Shown here one piece after another: positions 13,790 through 59,022 of a DNA stretch of 64,000 nt. Source of the stretch: Phoronis australis (taxonomy: Eukaryota; Animalia; Phoronida); the NCBI GenBank assembly GCA_002633005.1, contig NMRA01000885.1:6185-70184 (forward strand). Reading direction: 5' to 3'. The position numbers and the translations under genes are program-made. Positions within the stretch are counted from its first letter, which is position 1; every line of letters starts with the position of its first letter. The notes below the pieces were generated by a model. The model saw only the letters and a list, made by a program, of their open reading frames with translations, ran no database searches and had not been told where the DNA came from.

Positions 13790-13936
13790 TCCCCCTTGTT
13801 GACAAAAAAACTATGAAACACTATCCTAATTTTAAAACTAGGATAACTTGTCCTAACTATAAGACAATGGGTGGACTATCATTGTCTGGACAGTCAAACG
13901 GGGATTATTCTGCCCCAACGGTTTGGCTGCTCGTAA

Positions 13937-16900: not shown

Positions 16901-18030
16901 GTTTGAGCCACCATATAAATATAGGCGGGAGGTCGACGGTGATGTCAGGATAGGTTTGCCATTCGGTGTCAAGTGGTTTGGGAACATGCGACGGTAGGTT
17001 CTGAGTGGGAGGAGGTTACCACTAGCGCCAGTATCCACCTTGCCTCTGAGGATACCTTGTTTACGGTGTTCGTGCCAAATGTTAATATCAGCAAAATCCT
17101 CTTGTTTGTCATCAGGACCGATAGAGTCGAAGACTAAGTTTTCAAAAGATATTTCGTCAGTCTCGGGTACATGAGAAGTAGCGTGGAATCGCTGAGGGTT
17201 GGGTGGTGGGTGAGCCTTGGGCCTTGTAACTGGGTTGCCTGATGAGCGACAGACATCTCCCCAGTGTCCCACCTTTCCACATCGGTGACAGGTTTGTCCC
17301 TTAGCCGGACATTGGCTGCGACATCTATGCCGCTCTTTTCCACAGTTTCCACATGTGTCGCTGGGTTTTCTATCTGTGTAGCGTTTTGCAGCGCTCTCTT
17401 CACGTGTATGTCTTTTGATTGCATGGATTTCCGTGGTAGGACGACCGATTTGTTGCAGTTGTGCTTGTGTGCATTCATACGTACGGGCGATATCAAGAGC
17501 ATGTTTCAGCCTGAGTTTCTCCGGGTCTTGTTCGAGTAGTTTCTTCTGAACTTGTTGCGAGTTTGCCCCTTGGATAATTTGGTCAAGTATTGCGTCGTCT
17601 GTAGCATCTGGGTTGCCGAAGTTGCATTTCTCCGCGTGGAGTCGAAGGCGCGTAAAGAAGTCGTCGATAGATTCGTTGCTGTCTTGTGTCATCTGTCTAA
17701 GTTGAAAACGGCAAAGACGAAAACTTGCTTTCGGCTCAAAATACTTCTCGAAGCGATCCCAAACTGTTGTCGGGTCGTCTTGCTGTTCGGGCGTGAGGGA
17801 CCAGGAATCAGGAGGGCTTTGGGGCCCAGCCATAAGAGTATATAGCTCACTTTGGTCGCTGGCGATTGGCTGGTGTACGCAGGAGTGCTGAGAACCAGGT
17901 TGCAATACCTCTTAAAATTTCGGAACGTTTTGGGTAAGTTGTCAGTTTTCCAATCAAAAGAGGGTGGTTTCACCCCAAGTAAATTGGGGTTGTGGAGCGT
18001 TGGTTGAGGGTTGTCTTCCCCGTCTGACAT
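13937..18030 (-). pseudogene. Gypsy gag-pol, frameshifted
   Basis: Gag with paired Cys/His knuckles (CGNCGK..H..C; CHRCGKVGHWGDVC), protease DTGA, RT IADD, RNase H DAS, integrase HHCC and TDNGPQF. Frame breaks near 17810, 16620, 14900 and 14320. Confidence 0.93.
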
Positions 18031-18190
18031 CGTGGCGGTGTGGCGTTGGGGTATTGTAAAGTAAATTGGAAAAAACTCACCAGTATGGCAATGTTTATTT
18101 AGGGTGAAAAAAAATTGCAAAAACCACAAGGCAGTGTTAAAATGGTGATCTCCGCGTCAGGTGTGGGTTCGTCTCACGCCGCTGCCACCA

Positions 18191-18368
18191 TGTTATGTTT
18201 CTATGCTGGTTTCGGACCAAAGATGAAGATCGATACGATTGTGACTAATACATATATATTGAGAGTACATGAAACATCAACCGGAACAGGAAGTAGGTAA
18301 CAGAGCATGCCTACTATACTAGGACACTGGTAGCGACATCTTTAGTTACTACTGACCATAACGTAACA
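18191..18368 (-). repeat. Gypsy 5' LTR
   Basis: Identical to 13612-13789 and adjacent to the PBS. Confidence 0.97.
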
Positions 18369-18953
18369 CTTCACATCTTCCATGGCGAAAGAGTGGTCAG
18401 GGGAAGCCATGTGACTAAAAACTGCAGAATCATAGCAGTCCCCATAACTGGACCTCCGATGCTGTTTGAAACGACTTTTCAGGGCTTGTTTGGTTTCCCC
18501 AATGTATGCTGCTCCACACCCTGGTTCCGAGCATAAAATGCCATACACCACATTTGATGTTTTCTCTTTGCTGGTTTTGTCTATCACATTTAACAATCGA
18601 CTCCTTATGGTGTTAACAGGTTTGAATACGACAGCAATGTCGTGCCCCCTCATATGTGATTTGATCTTGTCAGCGATCCCTGGCACAAAAGGCAATGTTA
18701 TCCTCATGTTTCCCCTATTGTCAAACTGCGTGTTCTGAGGCCTGACTCTGTCATGGTTTGCCTTGTGGAATGACCACTTCGAGTAGCCACATCTTTTCAG
18801 CACTGTTCTGTTGTGTTCTATTTCAAAATCAATGTCCTCCTCTGTGTTGGGGATTGTTCTCGCTCCATAGTCCAATAGATACATGTAGGGTGCTGAAGAG
18901 AATCCCGCGGAAACTGTGCGACAGATCACATGACAAGTTACGTGCCAACTCAG

Positions 18954-18994
18954 TGGCCTGATGAAGTCCTCTAGAGGAGGACGCAACGTAGCCA
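18954..18994 (+). ncRNA. Minimal type-I hammerhead ribozyme motif in the Penelope pseudo-LTR (GAAA->GCAA variant)
   Basis: TGGC-CTGATGA-A-GTCCTC(TAGAG)GAGGAC-GCAA-CGTA-GCCA: stems I and II pair, and a palindromic ACGT forms the helix III region. Confidence 0.7.
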
Positions 18995-19397
18995 TCTCCA
19001 CGTACCGTAAGTCCAGTAATAGATTTATCGATTCTTATACTAACTTTCCTTTTAATTCGCCTTCATTCTTAGTCACAAAGGAAGACTACTCTGACAATGA
19101 AATTGGCTTCTGCTCAGCTTTTGGGGAAATCTGGGTAATTTTGTTGGCTTGTACTGTGCTTGCACATTTGTGCTAAGCGTAAGGAGACAGGACAGTTCCC
19201 CTTGTTATGATGGCTGCGTACTGATGTGTCATGACTCATTATTTCTGTGCTCCTGTCCTCTGACCTCACTTTCACTCAGCTGTTTTGACGGGAAATTCCC
19301 CTGTTGCTCAGTGAAGGGGTGTTTTGGTTCCTTTGGTCAGAAATGTTTTCGTTTTTGAAGTATTGTGTTGAATTAAATTCTACTATACGTATTTTAG

Positions 19398-26570: not shown

Positions 26571-28591
26571 TGAAGTGTCCGTTTTTGTCGTGATATAACA
26601 GCAACTCGGCTGAAAGGTCTTAAAAATGTCCTAAACACGGTTTACGGTTTTGTAGTTAATAAAACAAAGAAACAGGTTTTGCAAGTTTTGAGCGAAAAAC
26701 GAAGGTTTGTGGAAAGTACAGCATTTTCCGTGAAAAAATGTGATTTATTTCAAAATTGCAGTTACGTGCTAACGAACCCCTAAAACAGTGGTTTCAGGCA
26801 CAAGATATGATTCTCTCATTTCCAAGGCTTTTAAAAATATTTTGCTTGATGGGTTAACTGCTAATACTTATTTTAAAAATGTCTGGCAACGAAGGTTGAG
26901 AGTGACAACTGAGATTCTTTGTGTCACAGTGTACTCTTGCAGAAAAAATTTGGAATCACACGTAAAACTGTTGTGTTAGATAAATTGGTGTAACTGTTAA
27001 ACTTTGCCTTTTATTCATATTCCGTTATCCCCAATTCGTTCAGTTTTAAGGTAATTGTCGTTTTGGGATTATTGCTGGATGAGGATGGCTTAGCGAAGTT
27101 TTTAGGTTTGAGCAGAATTATGAAGCAATCATTTTTGTTTTTTTGTTTTTATTACAAATTGCCAATACTCACTGTTGTCCGCCAATAATTCACCGCAACC
27201 AGTTCAGGTGACTTTTTCACTTAAATACACTTAAAGTAGTGTCAATTTGTTAGTATGGGCTAGATCAACCAGTAAAGTTCTTATCTTCGATGTGAGAGTT
27301 ATGGTTTTGATTCCACGCAATTCAATGCTCGTTTCAATGAAAGATTTTCTCTCCAGTAGTGTCCCTTTCTAAATCAAACAGTCGTGTGTCAATTCTGACG
27401 TAATTTGAATGGGGCTTTTGCATTGGAAATGTTACCACCTGATCAAGAGTGCTCTCGAAAATAGAGACATTTTCCATGAATATTGCGAACGGACTACACA
27501 AACAGACCCTTGTCTTTGTGAAGAGCATGTGTATTTTCATTAACGTCACTGGAGATTTCAACTACGATAGTTTTAACCTTAAAAGGTTTAGATTTGCAAA
27601 ATGTGTTCTATTAAGTTTTTACCTGTAGCTACTTGTCTCCCAATCCTTATTATCAGACACATTGCATGTGTGGTTTTTTTATCTTTACAGGGAATTTATT
27701 TTGTTATTACTCATTGTTACCTCATGACAAGTGGCAATTTTCGCAAACCCCACTTTCCTTTTCATCTGCGGAAATTTAGCAGGGTCTATGTTCGTCACGG
27801 AAAATTACCATCCAACAAGCTAAAAATAATTTCATTTCAATTAACTACATGAAACTCATGAACATTAAATCTTTTACAGGGTCTAATTATCCAAACAAAC
27901 CTCCAAGAATAGATACCAACTTACTAAAACGGCTGGTATAACAAATTCCCAGCTGCACACCATCGTGTAAATAAATGAAAAATCCCTCGGTCCTGTTATG
28001 TCCCATTTTACAAAAGGCCCCGAATCTGAGTGGACATCCGGCTCCGTAGTTAGAATTTACATTTTGCTTCCATGCTATCTTGCGTTTGGTAAGAGATGAT
28101 GTAGCCCACATAAGATAGGGAGGGGGTTCATACATATAGTTACAGTAGACAACTGCATTTCCTTGACATTTTTCACCTGCGTCCAATAACTTGCCAGAAT
28201 CTCGAGTGGTGCAGTCCCACCGGATGGAGCACGCGTCTTCAGCCTTATTTGGCAGCTTGATTGGCCTGCAATCCACGACCATCGAAAATTCGACGCCTGT
28301 GCGTTTTTATATGTTGTCAGTTATGTGAATGTTAACATATCAGTTTGTTACTTCTTACGCAGAGGCATTTCTTAGCCTCATGTTCGCAATGTTGAAACAT
28401 TTATGCATGTGCGTAAAAACAGCAAAACGTGGAATGTTTTTGTTTTGGACACATATATTTTCTATTGAATTTTGATCACATGTTTTCTGTAAATATGTAA
28501 TTATGATTTCTGTACCTTTAAGTAACCTTTGAAAATGATGTGTAGTAATATTGAGAATAACTGCATGAGTAAACAGGTCACCAGAATTCGT

Positions 28592-31500
28592 TTAGTTACT
28601 AGATTTGAATCTGACAGGTCTTATCTTCATACTGGTTCTCTTCATAGAGTAGAGGCCTTTGTAATAGTACCAGATGACTCGTTCTCCTCCTGACTTGTGG
28701 TTACCGTGATGATACAGACCGTTCAGGTTGGAGTAATGACAAGCGTTGTACCACCACGCGCCTTTATAGTCAACAGCACAGTTTGCAAAATGGGCGTCGT
28801 TATCTCTGTCCTTGGTGGTGAAGGGTTGACCGTTTTGGTAGATTAAGGAATCACCTGGATTAGAAATATTAAGATGAATACATAATCGTGACAAGTTTTG
28901 TAGTCCTGTTGGTGATCATATTCTGTCATGAATGGGACATTATGGGAAAATTTTTGGCTGATCTGAATACCGGTGTGTCCTTTAGTGCCAATTTTAGTTT
29001 TTTACGTTGAACGTGTATCTTCGGAATTCCTTAACGGATTGTCATAAAACTTGGCAAATATGTATCCATTAGAGAGATAACGACATGTTCTCGCTTTCGA
29101 AAGGCGAATTTCGGATGTATCCAATTACCGATATGTCCCCTAGTGACAGTATTAGTTTTTCACGTTTATCTCTGTATCTTCGAAGTTCCTAAACGGATTT
29201 TCATGAAATATGGCACATAGGTGTCCATCAATGAGATGACGCTATTCTTGAGTTTTGGATAGATTCGAGGTATTTTGCGCCATCTACTTAACATTTTTTT
29301 TTCTGTTTTCAAGATTTTGTCGCCCACCCTCTATCGACCAAACCGGCCTGTGATTATGAAAATTGGCATGTATCATGTTCGTAGTGTAAAAAAACGGTTG
29401 ACGACGATTTTCCGACGGCCATTTTACTGTTTTCTAGTTTGTTTTAGGCATCTGCCCCTATATCGACGAAACAACTCTAAGGATGAAAATTAGCGTTGAT
29501 GTTTCTACTGTAAGAAGGATGCTTATGATGATTTTCGGACACTCGGACTACCGTGGTGCTTACTAGTGGCAGTGTTTTGCATATATAGCATCTGCTAAAC
29601 CCTCTGCAGGATCTTTATTAAATTTGGCAAGTGTATTTCTACGAAGTTGACACTAACAACGACAACATTTTGATGGAACCAACTACCGTGGTGCTCCCTA
29701 GTGGCAATTTTTGTTGTCAGCTGTGTCTTTGAAACTCATTGGCAGATTTTCAATAGATCTGTTTCTATTAGTAAGATGACGAAGACGCCCTCTCATTTTC
29801 GGATGGATTTGATGTATTTTGCACCACTCTGTTGCCATTTTAACAATTTTTGAGTACGTTTTTGACATCACCCTCTCAATCTACCAACCACTTGAAGAAT
29901 CATTTCTAAATTTGGAGATACTGTATGTTCCTAATAAGAACAAGTATGACATTGATTTTCGGACATGTTCAACTTATTTTCCCCTCCCCCGTCCACGGCT
30001 GTATCTCATTAGCCTTTGCAAAATGTCTTCCTGAAATTTAGCTGATTTGCTCCTAATGGAGATGGTAACTGATGACGGACAGTTTCAGACCAATCCAACT
30101 ACAGCTTTGCTCCCTACTGGAAATCTTATTTTTTACATTTGCCTCAGTCTGTAACTTCAGAGTTCCTTGATGCTTTGTCATGTACATGTAATTGGGCCAA
30201 ATTTTGTATCATGAAGACAACAGCATGTTTACTTTTGCTGATAGATTCGATATACATGTATTACGACACAAATAGAGCCATTTTTAATATTTTAGTCTGT
30301 TTTTGTCTCCTGCTTTTGTATCTGCCAAACCAAGCAGAGGATCGTTATGAAAATATTGGAAGATGTGTTCATTCTGACAAGAGCATGACTGACTTCAAAC
30401 TGGTCCAACTACTGACAGTGATGGCTTCTTTAGACACTTATTCGCATCAAAGTTTGTATCTCCTAAACCCTTGTAATATTTTTTTTTGAAATTTCGCAGT
30501 TGTATTTGCATTAGCTTGACAGCAGATGGATGGATTCAACTACTGCAGTGGTTGCAAACAGTAGCTTGTATTTATTACATTTGCCTTTGTATCTTTTGAG
30601 TTCTTTGACAGATTTCATAAAATTTGGCGAATGATTTGGAAAGACGGCGACACCTTCCCATATTTGGATGGTTTCAATATATTGTGAGCCATGTAACTGC
30701 CTTACTTGATACAAATAATCAACCCATCACTGTTTGTGGTGCATTCGTGGGCGCATTTCATTCGCCTTGCTCTATTAACCAGACAATTGTACATGTAAGG
30801 CTGATTTTGAAAATTGGCTTATATATTTTGACTGTGAAGTGGACAGATGACGATGGTGTTTGGACAGATCCAAGAACTGTGACACCTCCTAATATTTGCG
30901 TCCGTGCTTTATCTCATAAAGTCTCCGCACGATCTTTGTTAAAGTTGGCAAGGTGATAACAGATGATAACCCCTTTTGGATGGATCCGACTACTGCTGTG
31001 ACCTCTAGTGGCACTTTTATTTTTCCCATTTCTTCTTTATCTTTGGAATTCCTCGATGTATTTTCATTAAATTTGGCATATAAGTTTCTAAGCAACAATG
31101 ACACTCGTTTCCAGATGAATTACGCATGATGTACATCTTCTAGAGGCCATTCTTTTTTTTCGTTCATCTCTATATCGGCCAAACCATTCAAGAATGGTAT
31201 ATGCGTTCTTACTGGGAGGAGCATGGCTGGCAATGATTTTTGGACAATTTTGAATACTCTGTTTTTCCTTAACCTCTGCTAGATCTTTATAAAATTTGGC
31301 AAGTGCAAAATCTTCACCCATGCCGTAAAATGTCAGAAAATCATTTACACTTAAAACGATGGTCGTTTTTTCAAATATAATGATTACTTGGACTGTGAAT
31401 ATTAAAAATATAAGTAAACTGCGGGCGTCCTGGCGCTCAATGGCTTCAATGCTAGAGCTAAAATGACTGAACAAGATTTCGTTACTTTGGTAAAACAGAT

Positions 31501-34500
31501 TTTTGTAACCTTCGCTTACCTGCGTTGCCAGAATAGTTGCTGATAGCTAACTTATATTTTTCTCTCTCTGACCCAATAGAGAAATCTTCGTAGGCAGCGT
31601 ACACTGCATTATTGCTGAAGTCTTCTAATTCCACTCGTAACTTGTAGGCGTCTTGATGTGTTAACCGATTAATGTTGTCGTTGCCTGTAATATTTATTTA
31701 AACCCACTCATGTATAGGCAATTAACAATCACAAAGCTCCCTTTCGGGTGTTTGGGAATTTTCTTTCTTTCTAATTTCATTTTGAAATGTGTTTTTAAAC
31801 CATTCAAGGTTATGGTATTAGACTGAAGACTTATATGCATTTGAATCGTCCAGTGTAGGGATGAAAAAATCTTACCCAACCAAAACTCTCCATTAAGATA
31901 ACCAAATCCTGCCTTATAGTCGGACCATCCTCTATAGAAGTCAACGGACCCATCTTGACGTCTCTGGAATACCTGGTTGTATCAAGTAATTCATTGTTAA
32001 TATAACTTGCTTTAATAACCATCTTTAACGGCGGGTTATTCACACAGAAACAGGTACATGTAAATGATACAAGCATTTATATGAAGTTTCCATGTGTATG
32101 CATAGTGGTCAATCAAGTTTTTGGATGTTGTAAGTAGTTTTCATCTAGTAGATTTATCAGTTGATTATTTATAAAGGTTTGTTATAAAAAGAACACGTTA
32201 CTTTGTCCCATTCTCGGCATATTTACCGTCCAGCCTCCTCCGTTGGTCACCATGTCACAGTAAACATCCATGTTACTAAAGCCATCTTTCGGTTGAATAG
32301 CGTAAACACCACTTTGTCTAAAGCCATTGTTATACAAATCTGCACAATCTTTTCCTACAATCGGAGAAATGCGAAAACTTGTCTTCCATGTTCTTATCAA
32401 AGATTCCACCAACCATATTCCATCATTCATACATACACGCGCACACATACACGCGCACGAACGNCAATCACACATGAAGCAAAACCAATAGAAAGAGAAT
32501 GCAGTGGGAAAGGATCCTCAGAAAGGTATTGCAAAATTGCAACATTTAATTATTCAAGCTACATGTACATGTATGTTCCATTATATAAACATACACACAC
32601 GCCCACATCCGCACACGCACGCATGTAAACATACGTGAAACAAAACCAGCAGAAAAACAATGCAGTAGGAAAGAATCCTTCAGAATGGTATGACAAAATC
32701 TTTATAAGCAACATTTAGTCTTAATGCTATACACATGTAGTTATCCAAGAACCATTATTTGGATGACGTTATTAAATTTGGGAATTAAAGTAAGATTCTT
32801 GGTACAAACATAATATACATAATATTGACCAATAGTTTTAACAGTTGCTAAATCTCTTTGAAATTTGGCACCTGTTTGTTTTTCAATATTTTATTGTTTC
32901 CTCTAACAATGTTAAACTGTATCATAAAAATTAGTCATCTAATTTTCAGCCGAATATATTCATTTAATGTATTTCAGACAGCATGAAATGTAATATAGCT
33001 GATTGTATGTTACGCTGTGACTCATGCCTTGAATAATGATCAAGATTGCGGTATTTTTGAGAAAAGTGTTTAGCAATTTTTGTTCATTATTTCCAGATAT
33101 CAAGCCAGAAAATTTACAGATTAGCTGAAGAACACACTGAAGTTGTGTCACATTGGTAAGCTGAACATAATTGTTCAGAACAGAGACAAGCTGTATTTGT
33201 AGTATATTAAAGGGAAAACTATGCAAAAATTATTGACTTTGGTTATGGCGACTACAGTTGCAAAAGTATTTAAACAAATAATATTGAAAATTGTGAAGAA
33301 ATGGTAAAAGAAGGAAGATATAATGTGACATGCATGTTTTTGGTTTACAGCAGCCTCATGTTTCGGAATGAGGTCATAAAAATGTAGTTAAAGGAAATCA
33401 TTGGCCAAAAGAGAGTAAAGCTTCTCAAAGTCTGACGATTTTGGTTAGAAGACATTTATTTTTACAATGTTAAGTTTGTTGCAGGCACGCGTCCTCCATG
33501 GATAGTACCTGAGTGATCATGTTTTTAATTTCTAGTTCAGTGTTTTATTTGTGACTCACGTTACTGTGCACTTTGTCCACGGAGCTGCTGCTGGAGTGGG
33601 TAATGTTGATGTAAGGTTGACAGTCTATTACTTTAATGATTATTGTACGTGATCAAGTTAGGAATGAAAGATAATTGCTTGACTTTGTTTATAAGTGCAG
33701 AGGTGGAACTGCATGAGGGGTTCAGGGGGTTCAACCCCCCCCCCCTCGGGACAGGATCAAAAATTAAAATTTAAAAAAATGTCGCCAGGAAAACAAACTC
33801 ACTTACTAAAACCAAAAAAAATCTTACACGGAGGACTCCCCTCCCACTGCGCCCCTCAGATTCGCGCAAATCTCCCTTACTGAAAACTTACATCTGCGAC
33901 TGAAGTTTAATGTATTCGATGCTCCGTGTATGTGGCCAAATGTACACTGTAACAGTTAGAATTTAATTGTTTTATTCCACCGGTTACCAGTGACAAACGA
34001 TGACGTATTCTTGCCAGTCAGAAAATTCTCGTTTAGGAAAAAAAATTGATTGAGACAGTGGAAAATCAATTTCATTTTTTTTCAGATCAAAAGTTATGTC
34101 AAGTTTTCGAAATAACATTTCAATTTTGATTCTCAAAAATTGGCAAATTTACTAAATGCTACATATAAATACAGAGTTTTGTGTTTTTGCCAATTTGGTT
34201 TCCCAAAATCAGGAGACTCCTTTTTGAAGGATGAATATCTGAGATAGAAAGTTATTAAATCCAGAATGAAATGTTGTGAAAATATAATATTAAATGAAAT
34301 TCTATTGATTTTTTGGTCTTTTTCATTTCATTCCAACATTAGTAACAGATACACTTTCTTGCATACAGCTTGAAGTTCTTAGAAGTACGTTCGAAATCTG
34401 TGTACTGTAACCGTGAATTAAATGTAAAACATGGTGAATTCCCTCTAATTCCCTAGTTCTTCAACTGCCATCTGTATTGGTTTCGTAGTTAGTTGTGTAG

Positions 34501-37500
34501 TTCGCTACATTTTTGCAGAAGCAAAACTAGTGTTATTTATAAGTGCGAGATTGTACCCCCGCAGTATCTGTTACAAGATAATTTGTTGACAATCTAAAAT
34601 GACCTTAGCAAAAATGCTGTTGATAACGGAATAGAAATACTTTTTTACCTTATTTACGTGTAAAACTTACTTTCCAAGCAACCATTCTGTGTCCCAGTTT
34701 GTCAGTTTTTTTCATTTTGAGCGCTATCCTGTCGCTCAACTTGGATTTTAAGGCTTTATTAATAATAACGGGCTACCAGCGAGATTGCCGCCTAAAGGCT
34801 ATATGTGAAATAAAACGTCACGTGACCACATAGGTGCAGACGAAAAATCTTTTTGTCACTAATGAAAAATGGCGGAGACTACTGGAATCCGCCAATTCAA
34901 TTATATAGTTAACAAACCATTACACATAATTCCAAAGTTCCTCAAGCAGGGAGGTAAGGTGGCCGAGCAGGGAACAAGGTGAAAATCAATCACTTCATGT
35001 GGCAGTGGCCTGTTGAAAGTCTCAGCGCAATGCATCGACATTTTTATCAAAAACTTTGTCACAAAATTCAAACATGACTTTTGTTCTGTTGTAACCATTG
35101 GTAACCTTCCTGAGCGGACTGAAAAATGGTGATCAGATAGTTGAAAATTCTCGCTTTGATTTTTTCTATTGAACTTTTAGCCTCAGCATTAGACGTTAAT
35201 CGTCGGCAGTCACCGAAAACTTTGGTATGAATTCATTTGTGCTAAAAACAAGCTAATCATACTTTGTTGGAGAAGTTTTTTGTAAAAAAATTATCAGCAT
35301 ATTCAACATGACGAGATAGCCAACCCCCTTTTTCATCGCTAAGGTCACAGTTTGTGTGTATAGTAAAGTAACGAAAAGACGTAATACACCGTCCAGTCTT
35401 CAACCTGTTAACAACGATAAGACCATCGACACATTTGGTTGAGATATCCATTGTTCTATTTTAATGTTAAGCAGATACGCACCTTGCAAATGGACTCTGC
35501 GTTAAGCACTACGCCTATAAGATTAACTACATGTTGTGGGTCATCGTGTATCTCATGACTCGTGAAAGCGCGTCGTGTCGATACTACCAATCAGAAAGAC
35601 TTAATGAAAATTATTCAGGGCATACAGGAACCGAAGCTGAAAATAAGTGGCCGTCAGACTGTATAACTGAACAGATGCTGAACGCTCAATTTGCCCGTTC
35701 TTTACACAAGAAGTATCCAAAATTATCATTGGTCATATTGACAAAATACCATAACTCCACGCATACAAGCAGTGACAACTTTATAAAAAAAAAACAATGA
35801 AAAAATAACGGGTTTGTCTCTAAACCGCAAAAACCTGACGTGCCGAGCTGTGCTTTAGAAGACTTATTGATGATTAACAGTGTATTCAATATACAGAAGT
35901 AATATTCACCATTAAAATGGCCACACTTTTAAACACTAATTTTTAGCTTTCACCCGCAACCAAGGCCCCGCCTTCCATCATATTATTGGGTCCTAGAAAC
36001 GGCAAACTTGTTATTTGACAGATGCCGCAGATGAATAACGATCAGTCTCAATTTTTGTTAAGTGAACAGAGAAGCTGTTGACTAGTATGGGGTCATCTGT
36101 GAACGTAGGGCCCCAAGTGTCTACTTAATTGCCTGAATGCCACTGAAGGAATGTTGAGTTGCTCATTCACTTACCTTTCGTCTTTGTCTCATTCATCAAC
36201 ATAGCGTAGGTCAAATTCAAATAACCTGTAATATTCAACAAGCTATTATATCAATCTTAAATCAATAACAAACTACATTTGGCATCGTATGTGAGAGCTC
36301 ACAAGTGAATTAATTGCTGTAATCTCAAATTTTATTAGATGGTATGATGATCTGCGTAGGTTTTTCATCAATTAACCTTTCGCACGATTAGCTTTTTGCA
36401 CCGCAGTGTTAATCTGCCAACCAAAATGTACCTGAACTCAAATCCCCCCGGGCTCCTTTGGAAAATACAAAAGTTCTGAAAATAGTGCTCACCACTACTG
36501 ACCACCATGAGCTGACCACATACTTGTGGTGCTTATGAGAACGTTGTGACACCTGAAGATGGGTGGAGCAATGGTCGACCAAAACTCGGCAAATTGAATG
36601 TAAAGAGGCGAGAAGTTGGTGTAGGCCAATAGATTTTAAAAAGAATGACCCAACTTATTTAGTCTTTCTACTGCTCAACAAGAGTGCTGATTTTTGTTTT
36701 TGAAGGGTTTGTATTCTACAAACTGTAAGTGCTCAAATTCTTATAACACATTGTTAGCAACTGTACCATCCAAACCATTCTAACAACAAAATAAAACGTT
36801 TCTTAATTTTAATGAAATTTCAATCGTCTGCCAAATTGTGTATTGAAAGAAACAATTCACACTGTAATTTGATAGAACGATTTAAAGAAACAATTTACAT
36901 TTTTAAATTCCTATTTTCTTTGTGGTGAACACTGTGCACTTCATTGTGCGACTGGCATATAAAAAGTTACTTTTGGCAGTAAAAATTCTTCAAAGTCATT
37001 TTATCAAAGTGAATGAGAGCATCAAAACACACCAGAATGATGAGAAAATACATCCAAGCATTGAAATAGTTTTATAATTCAAATTTCATGAAGTGTTCTT
37101 ACTTTCGAGATCACTAAGCTCCGTTTTTAATATAACCTGCTGCATTTGTAGACCTTGTTGTTGGAACTTGAGGAAATCACCAGTTTCCTTTGCTTGTTGT
37201 GTGTGGTCACTAAAATCCTGCTCAAGACTGTTGTGGGCTACGTCTAGGTTGTTCAAGTCTGTATTCAACTGCTTGTAAACGCGAGACAAATATTTCAGGT
37301 GTGTAGAAGTCTTGTGGTCTTGGGCTGTCCTCTCTTCTGATAACCTGTTGAGAAATGTTTCTTGCTGTTTTATCAGAAGGCTTTGGTTTTGCTGCTTTCT
37401 TGAAAATGTGTTGATTCTTTGTTGCATTACACTGGTTCTGTTGTTAATGTTTTCCATGCAGTCTGCTTTGTATTCGTCTACTTTCATATTGCATGCTTTA

Positions 37501-38162
37501 ATCAATCGAGTTTGGTCGGTCATTGCCTTCAAAACAAGAATCTGTTTGTCGCGTATCTTTGTTTGTGAAACTCTGAAGGCATCTTGCTCACTTGTCTGGT
37601 TCCAGCTGACCTCCTTCTGCTCAGCCAGCTGTTGGGCAATATCGACTTGGGCACTCGTCAGTGATGTAAGCGCAGCCTCACACTTATTCAGCAGTTTCTC
37701 TTGTTCAGCCACTTGCTTCTGTAGGTCGTTCAGCTCAGATGCCTGATCACGTGAATGAGTCATCATCAGATTTTGACGAGCCTCGAGCAATGACTGTTTT
37801 GTCATCAGGTTTTGCTGTGATTTCACCACATGGACCCTGTGAGACAGAGAGGCAAGACCAGTCCCGTATCTCTGTTGTCTCAATTTTAAATTTTCTATTT
37901 CCTTTTCAAGGTTTATGGTCTTTGCTTCGTCTAACATTCTTAGCCATGGTAGTTCGATATCATTTGAAGGCCTGTCAACGATATTTTTAGAAGTCGACTG
38001 CTGCGTATTAGTGAAGACTGAATTCAGCACCTTCTTTAGCAAGTCCAGCTCAGTTTTGATGGCGTCCCTCTGATTACGACACTCTGAAGCTGTCAATGGC
38101 TCTTCTCCTGCTAGTACATAATGCAAAAACAGTATTGCAGTGAGACACTGCATGCAAGCCAT
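28592..38162 (-). CDS. Gene A: secreted coiled-coil + fibrinogen-related domain protein (587 aa). Exons 38162-37103, 36225-36175, 32354-32227, 31972-31876, 31684-31520, 28854-28592
   Basis: All junctions are GT-AG and phase-consistent: 1060+51+128+97+165+263 = 1764 nt, open. Signal-peptide-like [19 protein letters not shown] and a Q/L/E/K-rich heptad region. FReD motifs [54 protein letters not shown]. Confidence 0.85.
28930..31330. repeat. Diverged tandem-array repeat element in the last intron of gene A; same family at 52590-54200
   Basis: Recurrent CCCTAGTGGC, AAATTTGGCA and CGGATGGATTCGA motifs in both places. Confidence 0.75.
33566..33628 (+). pseudogene. Internally deleted remnant of the CDKL5-like activation-loop exon
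   Basis: GTGCACTTTG|TCCACGGAGCTGCTGCTGGAGTGGGTAATGTTGATG matches 54381-54390 joined to 54465-54500. The upstream flank at ~33400 matches ~52500. Confidence 0.8.
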
Positions 38163-40959
38163 TCTGCTTCTACAGTGTTCAACAAATTTAAAAAAATAAG
38201 AACGTGAGGCAGCTTTTATTCTTCCTGCAGCTTGGGTAGATATGGAAGCTAACGCTTATCCTGGTGTACATCTGGTTAGACGTAACTTCCCCATTGTTTT
38301 GAACAAAGCAGTTAACCATTACGGCTGTATGCAGGGATTTTTAATGAAGGTCGCGTACCCGGTAGTCTTACGACCTACCATTGTTAAGTTGGAAATTTGT
38401 CAACATGAAAATTGTTCAGTATTTAATAAAGATTTTAACTATATCTTCATCGTAGCAATAATTCATATAGTTACCTATGAAGATTCAAAGTGACAACCCT
38501 TTGATTTTTCAATTTTGACACACGACAACATTGCAACAAACATTCAAAATGCAATTTCTAAAGGTAATTCTTGAGATTCTGGAGTCAATAATGAAAATTT
38601 TTTGCGACTATCACAAAACCAACAGGAAAATATGTATGTACAATATTTACAAACAAATAAGAATATAAATCAAGAGTTTTTACTCACAATGTACCAGCAA
38701 CTCAAGTCCTTACACAACTTGTCCATGTCTCTGTTTATTCTAAATTATCGTTGTTCATAGTCGTGAAATCTTCATCTGTGAAAAAGCCAAAAAAATATCA
38801 AGTTCCATGTATTTTCGTTTGTTTGAAAGCCTCAGTATTGTATCAAGCCTAGGTAAGCTAGCAAAGGTTTTGACTTAAGTGCTGCCAACAATTTGCGTCT
38901 CACACATTAAGTAACTCGCACACTGATCTGACAATATTTTAGACTTTCAGAAGTTATTTACATTTGATGCTAAAGGTAACAAATGTTACAACAGATGAGG
39001 ATTATCAAAAACATGCAGTTGTAATTAATTTATGGCCTGCTTCACGACAAAATTTGTAATACATTTAAAATACATATCAGCAAATGACTTTAAACAACAA
39101 ACTAGCATCACGTGACAATGGTAGCGAAAACTTCAGATGAAATTGAAGACATCTTTAAAGACATAAAAGTTGTAACCATACCAAAAAAGAATCATCCGTC
39201 CTGAAATATCCAAGAGAGCACCTCAGTCCAAATGGTCCATTGGGTGCCATCTGTATTACTATCTGGCAAGGAGATTGACGTTTCGTCCAGGCTATTGGGT
39301 TGTCTCTCACTTGTACCATAATCTTCATTCTGTGTTTTTGAACTCTTTCTTAGTCTTCAAGTTAAGAGTCTGGCAAACCAGCCATGGGAAACATAACTCC
39401 ATTTTTGTCTGGCCCTTTGTCTGGCACGGTAACTTTAATTCGCTGTTCGGCCTCTGCATTTTCGCCACAGTTGAGGCCATTACAAACTACTCCAATAAAG
39501 AAAACTAAACGATACTGGTTGAATAAGCTGATTAAAAATCACGAGACTTGTTTAACAGAAAATTACGTATCATTCCCACCTATTCTTATTACATTGAAGA
39601 AAGTCATGGTGAAGCATAAAACGTCCAAGCCCATGCTGGTTGTCATATTTAATGTCAACACATTAGGGAATAGGAGAATATATAGAACTCGAGAAAGAAA
39701 CATCGGCTAACTTAGTTTTAACAAATTTCTTGAATTCTTCATTGCCTTCTGCTGCCATAAACAGATGTGACGTACATCTACATGTGACTTATGGAGCCTT
39801 AATTTTGATACCATGAACAATTTTCCGATTTCTTGGAAACGAATAATTCCCTTAAATGCATTATTGTCACATATAATTATGTTCACCCGTCGTAGCGTAT
39901 TCTTAATACGGTAATGGATTCAATGACTTGGTCTATGTTATGGCCCTGTGGTTAGTGGACTTTGAAGAGCTTTCCCCTATTCAATATTGGCATTTTAGTT
40001 TTGTATTTTATATAAAGGTTATGGTAAATTTTACTTTTCTTTAAGCATTTAGGTAATGAATTATTCATGTCGTCAACAGCATTTTGCAATTTTTTAGCAT
40101 TTGTATTGATGTACTAATCTTTTATAAACAGAAAACTAATTTTTGAGCAATTATTTTTGTAAAACATAGAGAATTTCTGCAAAATGTCACATTGTGAATA
40201 GTGTATGGGACCTTTGCCGTCAGAGTAGATTGACATTTTTACTGCAATCCGCGGTTTACTCAGGCCTCAAGTCAATTTGTTCTTTCAAAGCCGTAGTGGT
40301 AATATTGTACATACATGTATACCCAGCATCCCCTTTGTCCAATCGCATGTTGTTACTTTTGCTCCTCTGCTGATTATACGAAAATGGCTTGACAGATAAT
40401 GGATGCACCGACAAAATTCGCTTTACAGACAGATTCGACCACCGTAGCACGGCCACATCAGTTTACAGCAAGACTCCTTGGACTGTGGATTGTTGTCAAA
40501 ACAAACTTGACACAAGGGTTTATTGTTAGATGTGCTGGCACCAGTCAATTTAAGAATGACATTAACTCCTTAAGCACCAACTGATAGCCAATGAATCAAC
40601 AAAAGTATTTCTTGGTTGTTTCTAACACATCGGCTTGATAGGTTTTGGTGTAATTTGATGTAAGGGGTCAAATACGACTGGCAATACGTTCTTAGATGGT
40701 GTTGTTGCAAAACATGCAGTCATAACGTTATTAAATTGTTATCTCTGTGGCTTGTTTTAAGTTGACATCAAATGCACGAGGTATTGACGTGTTTGATGAT
40801 GGGACATGTCATAGTTGTTAAGTTTATTTGCTTCCAGTTTCTTGTCTTGAAATGTCCTCAAACTTTGGAAAACCCTTATCAAGAGGTAATGCGTGGAGTG
40901 ATGTTGAACCGTATGAATGTACATGTAAGTGGCATTGTAATGAAATGCTAGGTCGTAAT

Positions 40960-42045
40960 ACCACACCAAGGTGACTAGTTGATTCTTTAAGTATTTTGGG
41001 GGGAAATTTTACTCAATTATTGGGGATGCTAAGAAGAGCCGCCGCTGTCCACAACGACCTCTGGAGGTGTGCCAACCAAATTGATCAGGCTCGGTCCATT
41101 ACAGTATGGCTCATCTCGTCTCTCCTACTACTTTATTGGCGCAGCATCAGGAGCCTGCCCACTTCCCGTAGTCTTCTTGCACCACTGTTCATTCCTCTTC
41201 TTCCATATCCACTGCGACGCCCTCTCCGCTCGCTCGCTTATAACACTGATGGCCTTCTTCCTTTCCTTTCCTGTCACCCTTAATGCACGAAATGCCCTCC
41301 ATACTGACTGCCCAACAAATCCCCTGCACCCAACTTCAACTGGCCAGTACCATACTCTGCCACCCCCTACTTCGACATTCCTCGCACAACTGTTGATATT
41401 TCTCTTTCTTCCTTCCATGTGCTTCTTCTATCCGCTCTTCCCGTGGCACTGTCAGCTCCAGCAGTATTACCTCCATCGTTGCCGGTGACCACATCACGAT
41501 GTCTGGTTTCAGACTTGTCTCCGCTGTCTCACTTGGGAAGGTCATCCTTCGGTACTGATCGACGTTAGTCTTCCGCAATGTTCAGCACACCTCCTCCTCC
41601 TGTCTTTCCTTGAGTTGAACTACCCGCCAGCACAAAATTAACACACTGTGACCCCTTCAGCACTTTCTGCTCCTTTTTGCGTTCCCTCTCGAGGCTCTCC
41701 GCGATCACCTCCAACACCTGGCCATCCCTCCATGTATATTGTTCGTCTGACAACGCTGATGAGCATGATGACAGCACGTGTTCCAGGTTTTCTGGCTTCT
41801 TACATTACACACAAGTCGGATCTTCCATTAACCAACACACAGTCACGCAAATAGGATGGGCTGGCCAAAACATCATATAGAGACCTCAGCAAAAACCTCA
41901 ATCTACTCTCCTGCATTGCCCAGATCTCTTGCCACTTCAAACTCCTCTGTCTAACTCCCTGCCAATTCAGCCAACTGCCTTGCTATCTCATGCCTGCTGC
42001 TCTGTCTCTTCTTGTTTCTTGTTCCATGCTTCTCACATGCTGCTG
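40960..42045 (-). mobile_element. 3' fragment of an RLE-type non-LTR retrotransposon (HERO/NeSL-like)
   Basis: Zinc knuckle ..LEHVLSSC, then KPDIVMWS..VILLELTVP.EE.IEEAHGRKKEKY and PVEVGCRGFVGQS..AERASQWIWKKR. Frameshifted. Confidence 0.85.
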
Positions 42046-46017: not shown

Positions 46018-50282
<4,265 letters not shown>

Positions 50283-52589
50283 TTGATCGAGATGCAGCGT
50301 CATTGTTCTCATTCGGGTTAACACGGTGAAATGTTGTTGAATGTTCCTGTTGCAGTGCCACTGGTCTTTCGCCGAGAAGCGTTTTATAGACGGCGATCTT
50401 TTCACAAGATTATAAAAACCCTTGAAAAAGTATCCGTTATCGATCGGTATCTCTACAACCAATCGGATGCGAAGCATCCAACTCGTAACTGACGACCTAT
50501 GTACATGCAGCTAACTTCGTCTGGGGTAACGGGTGATATTTATCGTCTTTAAAGGCGAAGGCAACCTGTTTTCATGTCATTTTTAGCAAAAATAAGGTTC
50601 GTTGATTATCTCAGCCACATTTTTCACTTATTTAATGCTTTTCGTAATTTAATTAATTACTCTTTACTTTTTATAATAAAATCTGAATAATTTATTTGTG
50701 ATGCCTTAACTTTAGCTTGATATTCATAATGTCTGAGCCGAAATGGCCCCATTAAATTTAATATGTTTAATTTTTTCATTAATACAATTTTAGGAATCAG
50801 GAAAGGCTGATGCTGAAGAAGCGGCTTCTGCTGAAGTTGGAGACCTGCCGATTATTAGTAAAGGTTGGGTATGGAAAAGTTCAAAACCAGCAAGAAATTA
50901 CCCTTCTGGACAACTAAGTGAGGGGGCTAGAGAGAGACCGAAAAGTCTACTCCCAGAAGATATGTCAAAGAGAATTTATAACTTGAGGAACGAGTCCGGG
51001 AAAAAGTATTTGCCAAAGATTACTGGGTTTTACCACAACAGGTCCAATGTAATTTGTTGAGATAGGCCGCTCTCAGTAAATGTGGGGAAACTGGGACAGA
51101 GGAAGTGGAGTATGCATTGAAAGAGGCAATCTGCGATTGTCAAGGATGTAGCATTGTAAAAATTCAAAGGGAGGAGACAGTACTGTGGCTGGACCTGTAA
51201 ATACTCTGGCTGATTTGCTAAATCCATTGGTGGTATCATTATGTCAGCACAGCTGTGTAGGGAAGTAGTCTTGTGTATTTTTGCAAGCTTTGTTTGCACC
51301 AGAACTGCTGTGTGAATAGAACAAATCTAAATTTACCTGTATTGATTTTTTGCCCAGCCACCAATCATGATCCTGGGCCAGTGGATTATGTTGGTACAGC
51401 CACATTGTAATGGGTACATTATTTTTTTTGTTTAGCCACTGGATTTTTTGGTCTGATAGCATTTTTCAGTGTGGCCAACACATTTAGACGTTTGTTTCGT
51501 GATTTCTGACCAATGTACTGTTCCTTTTCCTTGAAACTGTAAAATTGATCAGAAGTTGTGTTTCCGCATTTTATTTACCATTAGAGATTTTTGTTTGTAA
51601 ATGAGTATTTATTACTGACATTTGAGCCCCTGTTGTAGTTAGGCTGGTTGTAACACTCCTTTCAGGAGGTAAAGTTTTGATTTAGACCATTTACCTTCAT
51701 AAAATTTTCTCAATTATGTTCCTGATGCAGATGGGAAGTGATTTCTGGAATTGCAGCAAATTGACAGTTTGTTATTCCTCAAGACCACGCTGTGTGCATA
51801 AAATCACACACCGTTAGACAAGCCATCTTACAGAGCCTGATCAGAATTGACTAGGAAATAAAATACCTATTTCATGATGGTAAGTTGTCTAAATCAAAAG
51901 TTGTTTTATGTGATAGTAGGCGGGTTTATGTCCACTTCAAAGGATGTTTTGTTGCAGTACTGAAAAATGTTAGCACATTAGCCCTGGTGATTGTGGTGGT
52001 TATTTTTGATAAGAACATGGATGTGGTTCCGACAGCTACCTCAAAGTTGTAAAGAAGGAGAAATTTACAATGTTGCCAGCGACATTGCAAAATCCCTTTC
52101 TCGCAGTGAGACTACATCACCTTAAATGTAATTCCCTGACTTCACTTGATGGGTTTTATGTGGTTGACTCTGTCCTCTATCAATGGGGCTATTCGGAGAA
52201 TTCTCCTCGCGGTGTCGCTGCTGTACTAGTGGTGATTGAATTGCGCATGCGTGGCTGTCTGCATGTAAACAACTGGTAAAAGATGGAATTTTTATCAAAA
52301 TACGTCGTCTCGCTAAGCCTTATTGACTTGGGTTGTTGTGATGAAAGTAGCAAAAATTATTTGTAATGAAAAATTATTGAAAACTGTGTGAACAAAAGGT
52401 GACAAAAAGACATATGGTGACTTGTTTGTTGGTTTGTAGTCACCTTTTAAGTTTGGGATTGAGGCCATAAAAATTTCAGTTAAAGACTGTTAAAGGTAAT
52501 TATTGGCTAAAAGAGGGAAAAAGTCACCACGAATAGACTCCCAAAGTCTGATGATTTTGGTGAGAAGATATTTATGTTTATGCGCGCAC

Positions 52590-54200: not shown

Positions 54201-54393
54201 GCAACCCCATAAACACACCATTTGTGGTGCAAATTCGTGGGCACATTTCAGCGCTCCGGGTTGCACTTGTTACAATTGAAGTCTGTTGCAGGCATAGTTA
54301 CTCCATGCTAATAGTGAATAATTGACGTGTATTTTTGTGAATCTGCTTTTAGGATTTCTATATCTGTGACTGATGCTTGTGTGCACTTTGCAG

Positions 54394-54484
54394 GATTTGC
54401 CCGTTCCATATCGGGGATCGGCAGCGGTAACTACACTGACTACGTGGCCACCAGGTGGTACAGGTCCACGGAGCTGTTGCTTGG
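54394..54484 (+). pseudogene. CDKL5: CDKL5-like activation-loop exon (91 bp), isolated
   Basis: Bounded by ttgcAG and GTgggt. Translates [31 protein letters not shown], with SPE->STE. Its phase-2 end fits the phase of the exon at 10237. Confidence 0.85.
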
Positions 54485-55672
54485 GTGGGTAACATTGATG
54501 CAAGATTGACAGTCTAACAGTTCAAAGATTCTTGTATGTGGTACTAGTCAGTAATGTGAGACAACTGCGTGACTGTGTTTAACGTAAAATGCAATCCATG
54601 CTCGGTGTATGTGACCAAATATAAATAAACTTTAAGAAAAATACACTGTTGGAAACTATTTTTTATTCCACTCGTTTCCAATGACTCATATCGATGCTAG
54701 TCCTTATTTCGCTCTTGAACAATTGTGCTAGAACATTTTCTTGCAGTGTAGGGCATAGATGGCGCATTGTACTAGCATTTTGTCATGTCAGTATAACAAA
54801 ACATGACACCGTTATAATCTCTTAAGCATTTTTTACCAAATATCTTACAATTCGTGACAAATTGCTGCCCAAATTAGTTCATACCAGTAAGTATCCAATG
54901 AACTTCTTGCACAATTACCAACTGCTATATTTCCTTCTTGTCTCTTGTTAAATGGTCGCAAGTATCAAGACTCTGATCTGAGGAGGCTTGTTAATTACCA
55001 ACGCCAGAAATTTGTAACATGCACTACTGCGCATGCGCTAAATCTTGCCAGCAGCCCTCCATAAGAGCAGGCTATAATCAGGAATTTATAAGCGAGGGGA
55101 GATAACTGCACAATTTGCCGATAGCCTGTCGCATAGAGTGTATGTTAAGACTTGTTACTGCCAAATATCAGCGTCATTGGTGAAAAATTTTCCACGTCTC
55201 TTGAAGTTTGAAGTTTGTTCCATTCAGGCCTATGTTAACGATCGTCCGGAAGCCCATATCTGAGCGCATAGCTCATTTTGAAGTCAAGTTTGTGGCTGAA
55301 TTCATTTTGCCATCGGATTTGCCGATAGCGGAGGTGATTACCAGGAGTACTCAGAGGTTGCTGGTTCAAATTTCATGCTGTTTTTTGAAAAATTTTCCAC
55401 GTCTCTTGTGTTCAGAAAATGGATCCACGTACAGTGCTGTGAGATTAAATGTTGCCGATCGCGCCGGCTGTCTTGCAATGGAATTTGCACTGAAGCTGTT
55501 CAAAGATTTGTACTTTGCTTTAACTTGAATTTATAATCAAAGAAATCTTTTCAACTGGACTATTGTATCATTAAGTTGAATGTAATAATCTTATAAACTG
55601 AAATTGATATACTGCTAACAGCCAATTATGAAAACAGTTGTTGCCAATGGACACCAAAGAACCATTATAAGC

Positions 55673-56448
55673 TTATTTCCACGTTATTTCTACTCTTAAC
55701 TGATGACCCCTGTCCCACACATAAAGCACTTTATCCATGGGGTCATAATGAGCGTGTGCTGCATAGCCATATTCATTACTGTAACTTATACCTGGGTTGG
55801 TGACAATGTTGTTGTCACATGTGTCAAACACATGCGAGATGGAGCTGCTTTCATAACGATAGCTGTCGGTCACGTAAAGTTTGCCGCAGACCATAAATGC
55901 ATTGCCCTTTGACGTTTTTGTGATGGGAATTTGCCAGGTTTTGTCAACGGCGAATGTCAGTGGGTCAACCCTGCCCAAGACGAAGTTACAATTTTGGTCT
56001 ACGTTTGCCCAAACAATATAAACCCCTGATTCATCGAATTCAATGTCAATATCAGAAAATCCGCGCCACTGGTAAGAGCATTTATTTCTAAAGGCCACGT
56101 TAGTGCCGAAGTTTGACAATTTAATCAATTTGTATGGCTTGCTCAAGTTTGCCAAGTCATACACAAGTACCAGTGATGCATTTGTCTGTGCGCAGAACAG
56201 TTTTCCACCAATCATCTGGGCTTGAGCGCCATCGCAACCTGTTGGCAAGCGGTAAGACTTGACATTTTGGTTGTTTGTGAAGTCTGCCTCTGAAGGATAT
56301 AGGTTTAGAGTTCTTGCATTATCGTAACCATCCATGCTGTAGAACGCTCCTGTTTTTGATAGTTGGTCCCTTCCAAATGTACCTTGAGTAGAGCCTCTTT
56401 GGGAGAGAACCTGTCCCTTCTTGAACCCCAGTATGTCTCTGCATTTGG
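55673..56448 (-). CDS. Olfactomedin-domain terminal exon of gene C (776 nt, open)
   Basis: Phase-1 acceptor ttcacAG|CC. Motifs YQWRGFSDIDIEFDESGVYIVW, DPLTF.V.KTW, GNAFMVCGKLYV, YDPMDKVLYVWDRGHQL. Confidence 0.92.
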
Positions 56449-57769: not shown

Positions 57770-57835
57770 CATTAGTTTCTTTGTTCTTACTTACAGTCTC
57801 ATTCATCAACATGGCATAGGTCAAATTCAGGTGAC
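57770..57835 (-). CDS. Phase 1-1 linker exon of gene C, paralog of gene A exon 36225-36175
   Basis: [22 protein letters not shown] versus [17 protein letters not shown]. tacAG/GTaagt boundaries, and the flanking introns are homologous. Confidence 0.85.
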
Positions 57836-57959: not shown

Positions 57960-59022
57960 TGTCTGCACAACTGAAATATCTGTCTCGTGTTTACAAGCAA
58001 ATGAATACAGACTTGAACAACCTAGACGCAACCCACAACAAACTGGAACAGGATTTTGCTAACCACACACAAAAAGCAAAGGAAACTGATGACTTCCTCA
58101 AGTCCCAACAACAAGGCTTACAAATGCAGCAGGCAATATTAATAACGGAGCTTAATGACCTTGAAAGTAAGATACTTCATGAAATTTTAATTCGATTTCA
58201 ATGCTTGGATGTCTTTTCTCATATATTATTTTGAAGTGCAGAGATGACTACATTAATGTGAAAAAACTTAGAAAATCTTACTGCCAAAAGTAGCTATTTT
58301 CTGATACTGTAGCAACCATACAATGAAAATAAGACAATGTGTTAATTACGAAGAGAATGGAAATTTAAACCTGTCCTATAAAATTTATCTCATCTGTTTC
58401 TTTAAATCATGCCATCAAATTACTGTAATCCTATAAATTCTTTAGTTAAGGACATAATTTGGCAGTCGATTGTAATTTCATAATGTCAAATAGCTGGGCT
58501 ACTTCAAAGTTAAGAAACAGTTTCTTTGTTGTTACCATGGTTGGAATGGATGGTACCAATTGTAATCAAAAATGTTTTACAAGAATGTGAGCACTTGCAG
58601 TTTGTGGAATCCAAATCCTTCAAAATCAAAACCCAGCAATTTTGTCAAGCAGTAGGAAGTCTAAATAACAATGAATCCCCATTATAATGGTCTATAACAA
58701 CTTCTCGCCTATTTACATTGGCAAGACATTTCAGTCGGCTATTTTTGCGGTCATCCTCAAATGTCACAACATTCTTAGGAGGACCACGGGTATGTCAGGT
58801 ACACTGACTTGTGGTGGTCAGTAGTGGTGAGCACATATTTCAGACTTTTCCCCAGGAGCGAGGACTAACTCAGGTACTTTGCCTTTGCCAGTCTTGCACT
58901 CTAACAAAATTAGTGTAAAATTTAGCTGATCGTGTAAATGGTCCATTGATGAAAAAATTATGTGGATCACGTTGTCCAACAACATCTGAGGTTATCTACA
59001 GCAGCTGCAGTAAATTCACTTT
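57960..59022 (+). pseudogene. Inverted fragment: 3' end of the coiled-coil stalk exon plus its downstream intron
   Basis: [39 protein letters not shown]|GTAAG on the plus strand matches gene A 37310-37103. The following sequence matches the reverse complement of ~36300-37100. Confidence 0.9.

Follow-up and report, generated by a model that had tools for sequence, protein, structure and literature searches.

A 64,000-nucleotide (nt) stretch of the genome of the phoronid Phoronis australis (GenBank assembly GCA_002633005.1, contig NMRA01000885.1, positions 6,185 to 70,184 of the forward strand; below, the window, in whose own numbering all positions are given) contains a gene, here called gene A, which is probably a chimera. 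Judged from its sequence, it would owe its predicted signal peptide, its helical stalk and its linker to an olfactomedin gene, and its four exons for a fibrinogen-related domain (FReD) to a neighbour. Two further gene models serve for comparison: gene B, in which a PAN exon precedes the FReD exons, and gene C, which ends in an olfactomedin (OLF) exon (Table 1). Domain shuffling is mostly inferred from its end products; here an intron appears to preserve the fossil of a lost neighbourhood, and, with the lineages marked by a decayed kinase exon and genes of the parental types still expressed, the route and the direction of the head swap become testable.

Gene A and its second intron

Gene A has six coding exons on the minus strand (38162-37103, 36225-36175, 32354-32227, 31972-31876, 31684-31520 and 28854-28592), with 587 codons and no internal stop. 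All five introns are GT-AG, in phases 1, 1, 0, 1 and 1, and one frame remains open over the join between linker and FReD; the open 587-aa frame proposed in an earlier, sequence-only reading of the window is thus confirmed, with six exons in phase. The long first exon belongs to no Pfam family. Its most hydrophobic 13-mer begins at residue 6 (mean 2.12, a measure of hydrophobicity only), and a model of the stalk, computed for one chain, consists of four long helices at modest confidence (mean pLDDT 64.6, pTM 0.26), whose look-alikes in the structure atlas are generic coiled coils (scores up to 0.86). Searches for stalk homologs returned none among 3951 candidates and none among 180 pattern matches in metagenome contigs; the lone match elsewhere, to a 1439-aa protein (E 2.8e-7), looks like generic coiled-coil similarity. 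The linker agrees with that of gene C at 35 of the first 40 nt. At the other end of the protein, the last exon matches Fibrinogen_C (PF00147, 87.7 bits against a cut-off of 22, E 1.3e-24), and the four FReD exons measure 128, 97, 165 and 263 nt, the corresponding exons of gene B being 128, 97, 165 and 269 nt long.

The intron between linker and FReD (3820 nt) was compared by blastn with the interval 48934-57769 (8836 nt) of the sister unit. Seven blocks were found, all on the same strand and in the same order (E 1.5e-5 to 6e-43), which bears out the collinearity claimed in the sequence-only reading. Every block outscores all of its 40 shuffles (75-199 against shuffle maxima of 36-49), and the three inter-block stretches that were tested all fail to beat theirs. 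Within the homologous blocks, which make up 1176 of the 3820 nt (31%), 73-84% of the aligned columns are identical. They are not common repeats: the depth of X2, a DNA run that may come from the source sample, is 83-209 in six block-bearing bins and 642 in the bin at 56544-56692, against 2,500-210,000 in repeats.

Neither of the two exons said to be missing from gene A has left a remnant in this intron: the best tblastn E-values are 1.7 for OLF and 0.094 for PAN, and there is no match at the DNA level. The alignment is interrupted at both places, and, because DNA is retained between the OLF gap and the PAN gap, at least two events are required and a single deletion is ruled out. The OLF gap is clean; direct repeats at the borders of the sister 1.85-kb segment reach at most 6 nt, and a transposon origin of that segment was rejected for want of terminal or target repeats above this length. 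The sole AATAAA/ATTAAA hexamer within 1.07 kb past the OLF stop (at 54667) is kept in gene A at 33976, a weak indication, as the intron of gene A has 12 such hexamers.

Two side observations concern this part of the window. Within intron 2, the segment 33044-33353 is covered in run X5 by two near-identical contigs (depth 14 and 21), and X6-X8 have almost no reads there; it may be a repeat, or else belong to a transcript, as its end or as a cryptic exon. An internally repeated element family is common to 28930-31260, in the last intron of gene A, and to 52636-54250, between the kinase remnant of the sister unit and gene B, and attracts many RNA reads on the strand opposite to gene A.

Table 1. 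Positions in the window of the exons, gaps and homologous blocks discussed in the text (strand: -, minus; +, plus)
Feature	Position	Strand	Description
Gene A exon 1	37103..38162	-	353 codons with a phase-1 donor; long helical stalk after a predicted signal peptide; open frame; near-identical X5 contigs
Gene A linker exon	36175..36225	-	51 nt, phase 1-1, AG/GT ends; homolog of the exon that paralogs splice to OLF
Gene A intron 2	32355..36174	-	putative relic of the stretch that holds the OLF, kinase and PAN exons in the sister unit; seven collinear blocks
Gene A FReD exons	28592..32354	-	four exons, open and in phase; spliced contig, 98% alike, in X5
Collinear blocks (gene A = sister unit)	33230-33464=52320-52580; 33459-33575=54267-54390; 33575-33691=54464-54581; 33894-33994=54573-54685	same strand	blastn
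Collinear blocks, continued	34021-34173=56544-56692; 34508-34733=57313-57543; 35990-36281=57562-57894	same strand	blastn
OLF scar	34002..34021	.	19 nt facing 1.85 kb of the sister unit (54697-56543) with the entire OLF exon; clean gap, from the flanking alignments
PAN gap	32392..33229	.	838 nt found in gene A only, in place of the PAN-bearing 3.35 kb of gene B (48970-52319); internal repeat of 160 nt, 72% identity
CDKL5-like remnant, gene A	33576..33597	+	STE; last ~20 nt of the exon kept; ~74 nt lost, including the acceptor (~71 nt of exon)
CDKL5-like activation-loop exon remnant, sister unit	54394..54484	+	complete 91-nt exon, AG/GT at its ends; STE instead of SPE
Gene B	46018..50312	-	336 aa; PAN exon (50312-49961), with predicted signal peptide, and then four FReD exons
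Gene C OLF terminal exon	55673..56448	-	776 nt, 257 codons and stop, phase-1 acceptor
Gene C linker exon	57770..57835	-	66 nt, phase 1-1
Inverted gene C fragment	57962..58994	+	last 68 stalk codons and most of intron 1; corresponds to gene A 36320-37307

The kinase exon remnant and the direction of change

Both copies of the collinear interval carry, on the strand opposite to the genes, a remnant of a kinase exon; the best PDB match of the complete copy, in the sister unit, is human CDKL5 (E 9.3e-5, first of eight matches). A six-frame scan of the window with kinase motifs showed no other kinase exon. The STE codon that the sequence-only reading had noticed in both remnants is indeed read in both, even though gene A retains only the end of the exon, and this partial loss of the kinase exon is another deletion in gene A, one of known direction.

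The ancestral state comes from a third locus. Reads were aligned to 54260-59200 at 80%, and the best 40 of 608 differences and the best 15 of 56 joints were used. One contig of X2 (1881 nt, depth 80.8; single-locus contigs have 73-87) carries a kinase exon region (25 differences in 140 nt) and an OLF exon (111 in 686) at a distance of 523 nt from each other; the spacing in gene C is 1025 nt, part of it high-copy repeat. At position 54468, where C gives SPE, contigs summing to a depth of 196 of 244.8 read C, and since the remaining depth, 48.8, is below that of the contig, the third locus has SPE. RNA reads C as well, in 11/11 reads of X6, in 36/36 reads of X8 and in a contig of X5. The listed OLF differences of the third-locus contig recur in a 979-nt RNA contig of X5 and in reads of X6 and X8, and the latter two runs contain linker-to-OLF joints, 56447-57796 (6 reads, X6) and 56449-57772 (5 reads, X8), both in frame, with linkers respectively 3 nt shorter and 6 nt longer than that of gene C.

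SPE in the third locus and in RNA indicates that STE is derived and common to genes A and C, and the splicing of linker to OLF in expressed paralogs means that linker and stalk serve OLF there. With OLF present both in gene C and at the SPE locus, and STE common to A and C, one loss in gene A is the simplest reading, and these sequence comparisons support an OLF exon lost once in gene A, whose stalk and linker would accordingly be of olfactomedin origin. The stalk, linker and OLF exons (1060, 63-72 and 776 nt, phases 1 and 1) follow a plan that resembles MYOC, whose exons measure 604, 126 and 782 nt and whose OLF domain likewise occupies one exon (PMC6264709; also PMC4206993; these papers, and the others given below by such numbers, are cited from extracts). 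The putative donor gene is of the myocilin/noelin type, with a coiled coil, a short linker exon and a single OLF exon, and differs from it in its longer stalk; by sequence, its OLF domain is nearer to noelin, the best PDB match of the gene C exon (E 1.4e-35), than to myocilin. Genes of both parental types exist: the stalk-linker-OLF type in RNA and in the DNA contig, the FReD type as gene B and as a paralog with a short stalk (see below).

The origin that we propose would start from an ancestral block consisting of a three-exon stalk-linker-OLF gene, a CDKL5-like exon on the opposite strand, and then a FReD gene with a first exon of its own. After a tandem duplication of this block, the kinase exon of the copy would have decayed, SPE changing to STE before the two window copies split. 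The left copy would then have undergone two separate losses, one of 1.85 kb that included the OLF terminal exon and one of the first exon of the FReD gene; with both exons gone, the FReD acceptor would be the next strong acceptor downstream of the linker, and, linker donor and FReD acceptor both being in phase 1, the two would be joined in frame with no new splice sites. The right copy would have kept OLF and the FReD gene and lost the stalk. Read-through splicing possibly preceded the exon losses, as in human duplications (PMC6764479).

Of the reads over the kinase exon at 54394-54484, those of X6 include one with a single further difference, and those of X8 have at least five; perhaps there are two different expressed sources, or the duplicated exon is still spliced into a CDKL5 transcript.

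Evidence against the proposed origin, and rival explanations

Evidence that tells against the origin just proposed lies on three sides: the PAN exon, the expression of gene A, and the polarity of the OLF change. The first of these begins with the PAN gap, which is a replacement and not a clean deletion, the 838 nt of gene A having no homology to the 3.35 kb of gene B (score 47 against a maximum of 56 in 60 shuffles). Of the two gaps between the 3.8-kb and the 8.8-kb interval, the one at OLF is clean and the one at PAN is not.

Four RNA runs were aligned to 27500-41000 at 90%, and the best 15 of 70 joints were used. Most reads there come from paralogs or repeats, being 90-95% alike in 1761/1956, 1561/1755 and 1606/1782 cases. 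The FReD acceptor at 32354 is joined to stalk position 37705 in 48, 22 and 1 reads, which belong to a strongly expressed FReD paralog with a short stalk, and at 32354 the loose ends agree (116 and 99 reads, agreement 1.0) on a 30-nt sequence, which differs both from the gene A linker and from the end of the PAN exon; read by hand, it is open and joins the acceptor in phase 1. Joint and loose end together point to a second expressed stalk-FReD gene, with a short stalk and without a linker of this kind. Among the best 40 of 312 rows of differences from gene A, 14 fall in FReD exons 1-3, and at 11 of these the majority of reads have the letter of gene B, so that the short-stalk paralog is not plainly a daughter of gene A, and stalk-FReD genes may be as old as the split between genes A and B. 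Six sites are listed for the last FReD exon, only two of them with the letter of gene B in the majority of RNA; these six are outside the previous count and not attributable to the short-stalk paralog.

The first exon lost upstream of FReD could have been PAN or a short stalk, with about even chances, and PAN may have been gained in gene B rather than lost in gene A. The fusion of neighbours by loss of two exons, as the sequence-only reading put it, accordingly holds for OLF, by virtue of the SPE locus and the linker-to-OLF RNA, and is not established for PAN, where the gap is a replacement and the short-stalk paralog is an equally good model of the ancestor. Under both models of the ancestral downstream gene, the long stalk and the linker of gene A are derived from the OLF gene.

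The stalk-led FReD genes also bring in a single two-tailed ancestor, whose linker was spliced to OLF or, skipping OLF, to FReD; gene A, on losing OLF, would have been fixed for the FReD isoform, the FReD exons of the OLF-keeping sister copy would have gained their PAN first exon, and no fusion of two genes would have taken place in A. The OLF and FReD acceptors are indeed both in phase 1, two of the three FReD relatives (gene A and the short-stalk paralog) are stalk-led, the PAN gap shows no clean deletion, and read-through fusions are enriched in segmental duplications (PMC6764479). The short-stalk paralog, however, reaches FReD without this linker and has a different 30-nt end at 32354, and no linker-to-FReD joint from an OLF-bearing locus is listed, although this last point is weak, as it covers 54260-59200 only and the best 24 of 955 loose ends. 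We consider such an ancestor unlikely.

As to expression, the gene A junction, 36175/32354, is absent among the best 15 of 70 joints, the depth of X5 contigs is nil on the gene A linker and on 37103-37304, and the approximately 9-11 linker reads in X6-X8 may be from paralogs, the reads that are 99% alike numbering only 16, 1 and 12. Outside the junction, X5 contigs on the stalk differ from gene A at 0, 0-1 and 1 positions over 148-194 nt, and one X5 contig, spliced over the last intron, has 10 differences in 520 nt and one gap of 3 nt. The ratio dN/dS is 0.31 for the end of the stalk (gene A against C) and 0.31 for FReD (gene A against B), both values being pairwise and not assignable to the time after the fusion. 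Coding indels of gene A relative to genes B or C are all multiples of three. In simulations that used the substitution and frameshift rates of the intron blocks (1311 aligned nt, with 33 gaps that shift the frame), 0/2000 runs kept an open frame when at least a quarter of the gene A branch was neutral, 3.3% did so at a tenth and 18% at a twentieth; gene A is thus either selected as a fusion or very recently bereft of its exons.

If the exon losses were that recent, gene A could be no working fusion at all, its two halves having been orphaned and its open frame being left over from phase compatibility. The missing junction fits this, as do the few 99%-alike reads in X6-X8, the 18% survival of the simulated frame, and X5, which covers the stalk only piecemeal and the intron segment 33044-33353 at a similar depth. 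Intact GT-AG ends at all five introns and the absence of frameshifting indels relative to genes B and C argue for a working gene, as does the presence in one run (X5) of both the stalk contigs with 0-1 differences and the 98%-alike spliced FReD contig, and we hold orphaned halves to be quite improbable.

The polarity of the OLF change would rest on loci of one species, and the grouping of gene A with gene C depends on one nucleotide. The window's letter at 54468 is found at a depth of 48.8, about 60% of the single-locus depth, so that the site may be heterozygous; gene A, gene C and the third locus are about equally distant from one another (82-87%; 86.8% identity between the stalks of A and C, 84-87% between the OLF exons of C and the SPE locus); and the placement of the third locus in a working CDKL5 gene is putative. 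The reverse order, which the sequence-only reading had kept in view and by which OLF and PAN exons were inserted into an ancestral stalk-linker-FReD gene, with gene A as the unchanged form, gains from these near-equal distances, which permit a tree with gene A outside, and from the frequency of coiled coil and FReD combinations in spiralians (PMC9835746, PMC8878817), but it is highly improbable, since gene A would have to branch before gene C and the SPE locus, contrary to the shared STE, an OLF exon, in phase and with its acceptor, would have to be inserted leaving neither repeat ends nor a duplicated target, the exon plan is MYOC-like, gene A shows other deletions, and the third locus has an SPE kinase exon beside its OLF exon.

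Known systems and the surrounding array

Both the architecture predicted for gene A, a coiled coil with a fibrinogen domain, and the route proposed for it, a Sdic-like duplication and deletion, are already known. Vertebrate angiopoietins and ANGPTL proteins, a family characterized by the binding of Tie receptors or lipase, are similar to the gene A product in overall architecture and size. The last FReD exon, however, scores higher against other FReDs (79-81 bits with FIBCD1, tenascin-R, tachylectin-5A and ficolin-2) than against ANGPTL6 (76.8) or angiopoietin-1/2 (61-68), and the stalk has no homology to theirs. FReD scores and stalk searches, used here without a tree, give no sign of orthology to this family. 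The label 'angiopoietin-like' therefore describes the overall architecture well and does not extend to kinship; the likeness appears to be convergent, and an invertebrate protein with a coiled coil and a fibrinogen domain is not thereby marked as kin to the angiopoietins.

In acetyl-binding FReD lectins the S1 pocket is made of Tyr405, His415, Tyr431, Trp/Tyr443 and the Cys401-Cys414 pair, in FIBCD1 numbering (PMC3908420). Aligned with FIBCD1, gene A keeps Tyr405, His415 and Cys401-Cys414, and has Gly for Tyr431 and a gap for Trp443; it thus lacks the full pocket of FIBCD1, ficolins and tachylectin-5A, and canonical N-acetyl binding is doubtful, as Tyr431 and Trp443 are not kept. The product would be a secreted coiled-coil oligomer presenting FReD heads with an altered ligand pocket, probably a recognition or adhesion protein. 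Spiralian FreDC2 proteins, which consist of a coiled coil and an FBG domain and are proposed ficolin analogues (PMC9835746, PMC8878817), share with it the one C-terminal fibrinogen domain and would share the signal peptide and the coiled coil, both predicted in gene A; the gene A stalk differs in its length of ~350 aa, in having no homolog in our searches, and in being traced to an olfactomedin gene.

For the route, the closest parallel is Drosophila Sdic, where AnnX and Cdic were duplicated and deletions then fused one copy of each (PMC3395120). In both cases neighbours were, or would have been, duplicated as a block, one copy was fused by deletions, and genes of parental type persist; the coding region of Sdic, however, comes from Cdic alone, while gene A takes coding exons from both parents and joins them through existing splice sites over a fossil intron, not at a coding breakpoint. 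Transcription-derived fusions in segmental duplications (McCartney et al. 2019, PMC6764479) are likewise made by splicing together adjacent genes of the same strand in duplicated DNA. There the parents are intact and the fusion is an isoform, whereas gene A has no intervening exons in its DNA and the fusion would be obligatory. We found no report of a swap from an OLF to a FReD head in the main texts of the open-licence full-text literature. It is possible, though we offer it tentatively, that one stalk family swaps OLF and fibrinogen heads repeatedly, gene A and the short-stalk paralog being independent fusions enabled by phase-1 head exons and by adjacency in CDKL5 introns. Were this so, invertebrate 'angiopoietin-like' and FreDC2 proteins would in part be convergent on olfactomedin-derived stalks, and the array would hold every intermediate.

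Self-comparison of the window reveals a tandem array, with unit 1 at ~22.7-39 kb, unit 2 at 42.4-59 kb, and the downstream flank of a third unit at 60073-63322, which runs beyond the window and matches 24.7-26.6 kb and 43.8-44.6 kb. Further parts of the array, beyond the window, could include the SPE locus and the short-stalk paralog. Gene B, a gene predicted from the sequence, matches PAN_1 (E 1.4e-5) and Fibrinogen_C (E 1.5e-28) in Pfam. A search with its last exon matched 5 of 18 candidates, the best being a brachiopod FReD at 65%, and none is listed with a PAN family; this set, like those obtained with the stalk and with the OLF exon, is too thin for polarity.

The OLF exon of gene C encodes a domain of the expected size, about 250 aa (PF02191, 169 bits against a cut-off of 23.9, E 1.7e-49). 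Its relatives comprise one 754-aa protein at 35% identity among 740 longer candidates, and none of 40 matches in a pattern search. That gene C is an intact parent is ruled out in this window by its inverted and truncated stalk: judging from the sequence, the gene here is a broken copy, the end of its stalk being inverted and the remainder (residues 1-285) absent from the window. A plain assembly error at 58994 was rejected, as a contig of X2 with 0 differences spans this position; the 57962 end is unbridged among the pieces listed. The X5 stalk contig ends at 37305, within 2 nt of the position that matches the inversion breakpoint (37307), which is probably a branch point in the contig graph. 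Five reads of X8 have a linker-to-OLF splice near gene C's own linker (57770-56448), and a minority of OLF reads in X6 and X8 carry gene C letters (e.g., 4/54 at 55754 in X6); an allele of gene C that is expressed, and perhaps not inverted, may exist in other animals.

Elsewhere in the window, 13610-18368 is a young long terminal repeat (LTR) retrotransposon with two 180-nt LTRs, 100% identical, and gag/pol-like frames between them, which from its motifs we take to be of the Ty3/gypsy type. Open frames at 41100-41900, 18342-19034 and 1700-4300 presumably include, on the same kind of evidence, decayed non-LTR retroelement and GIY-YIG-like fragments.

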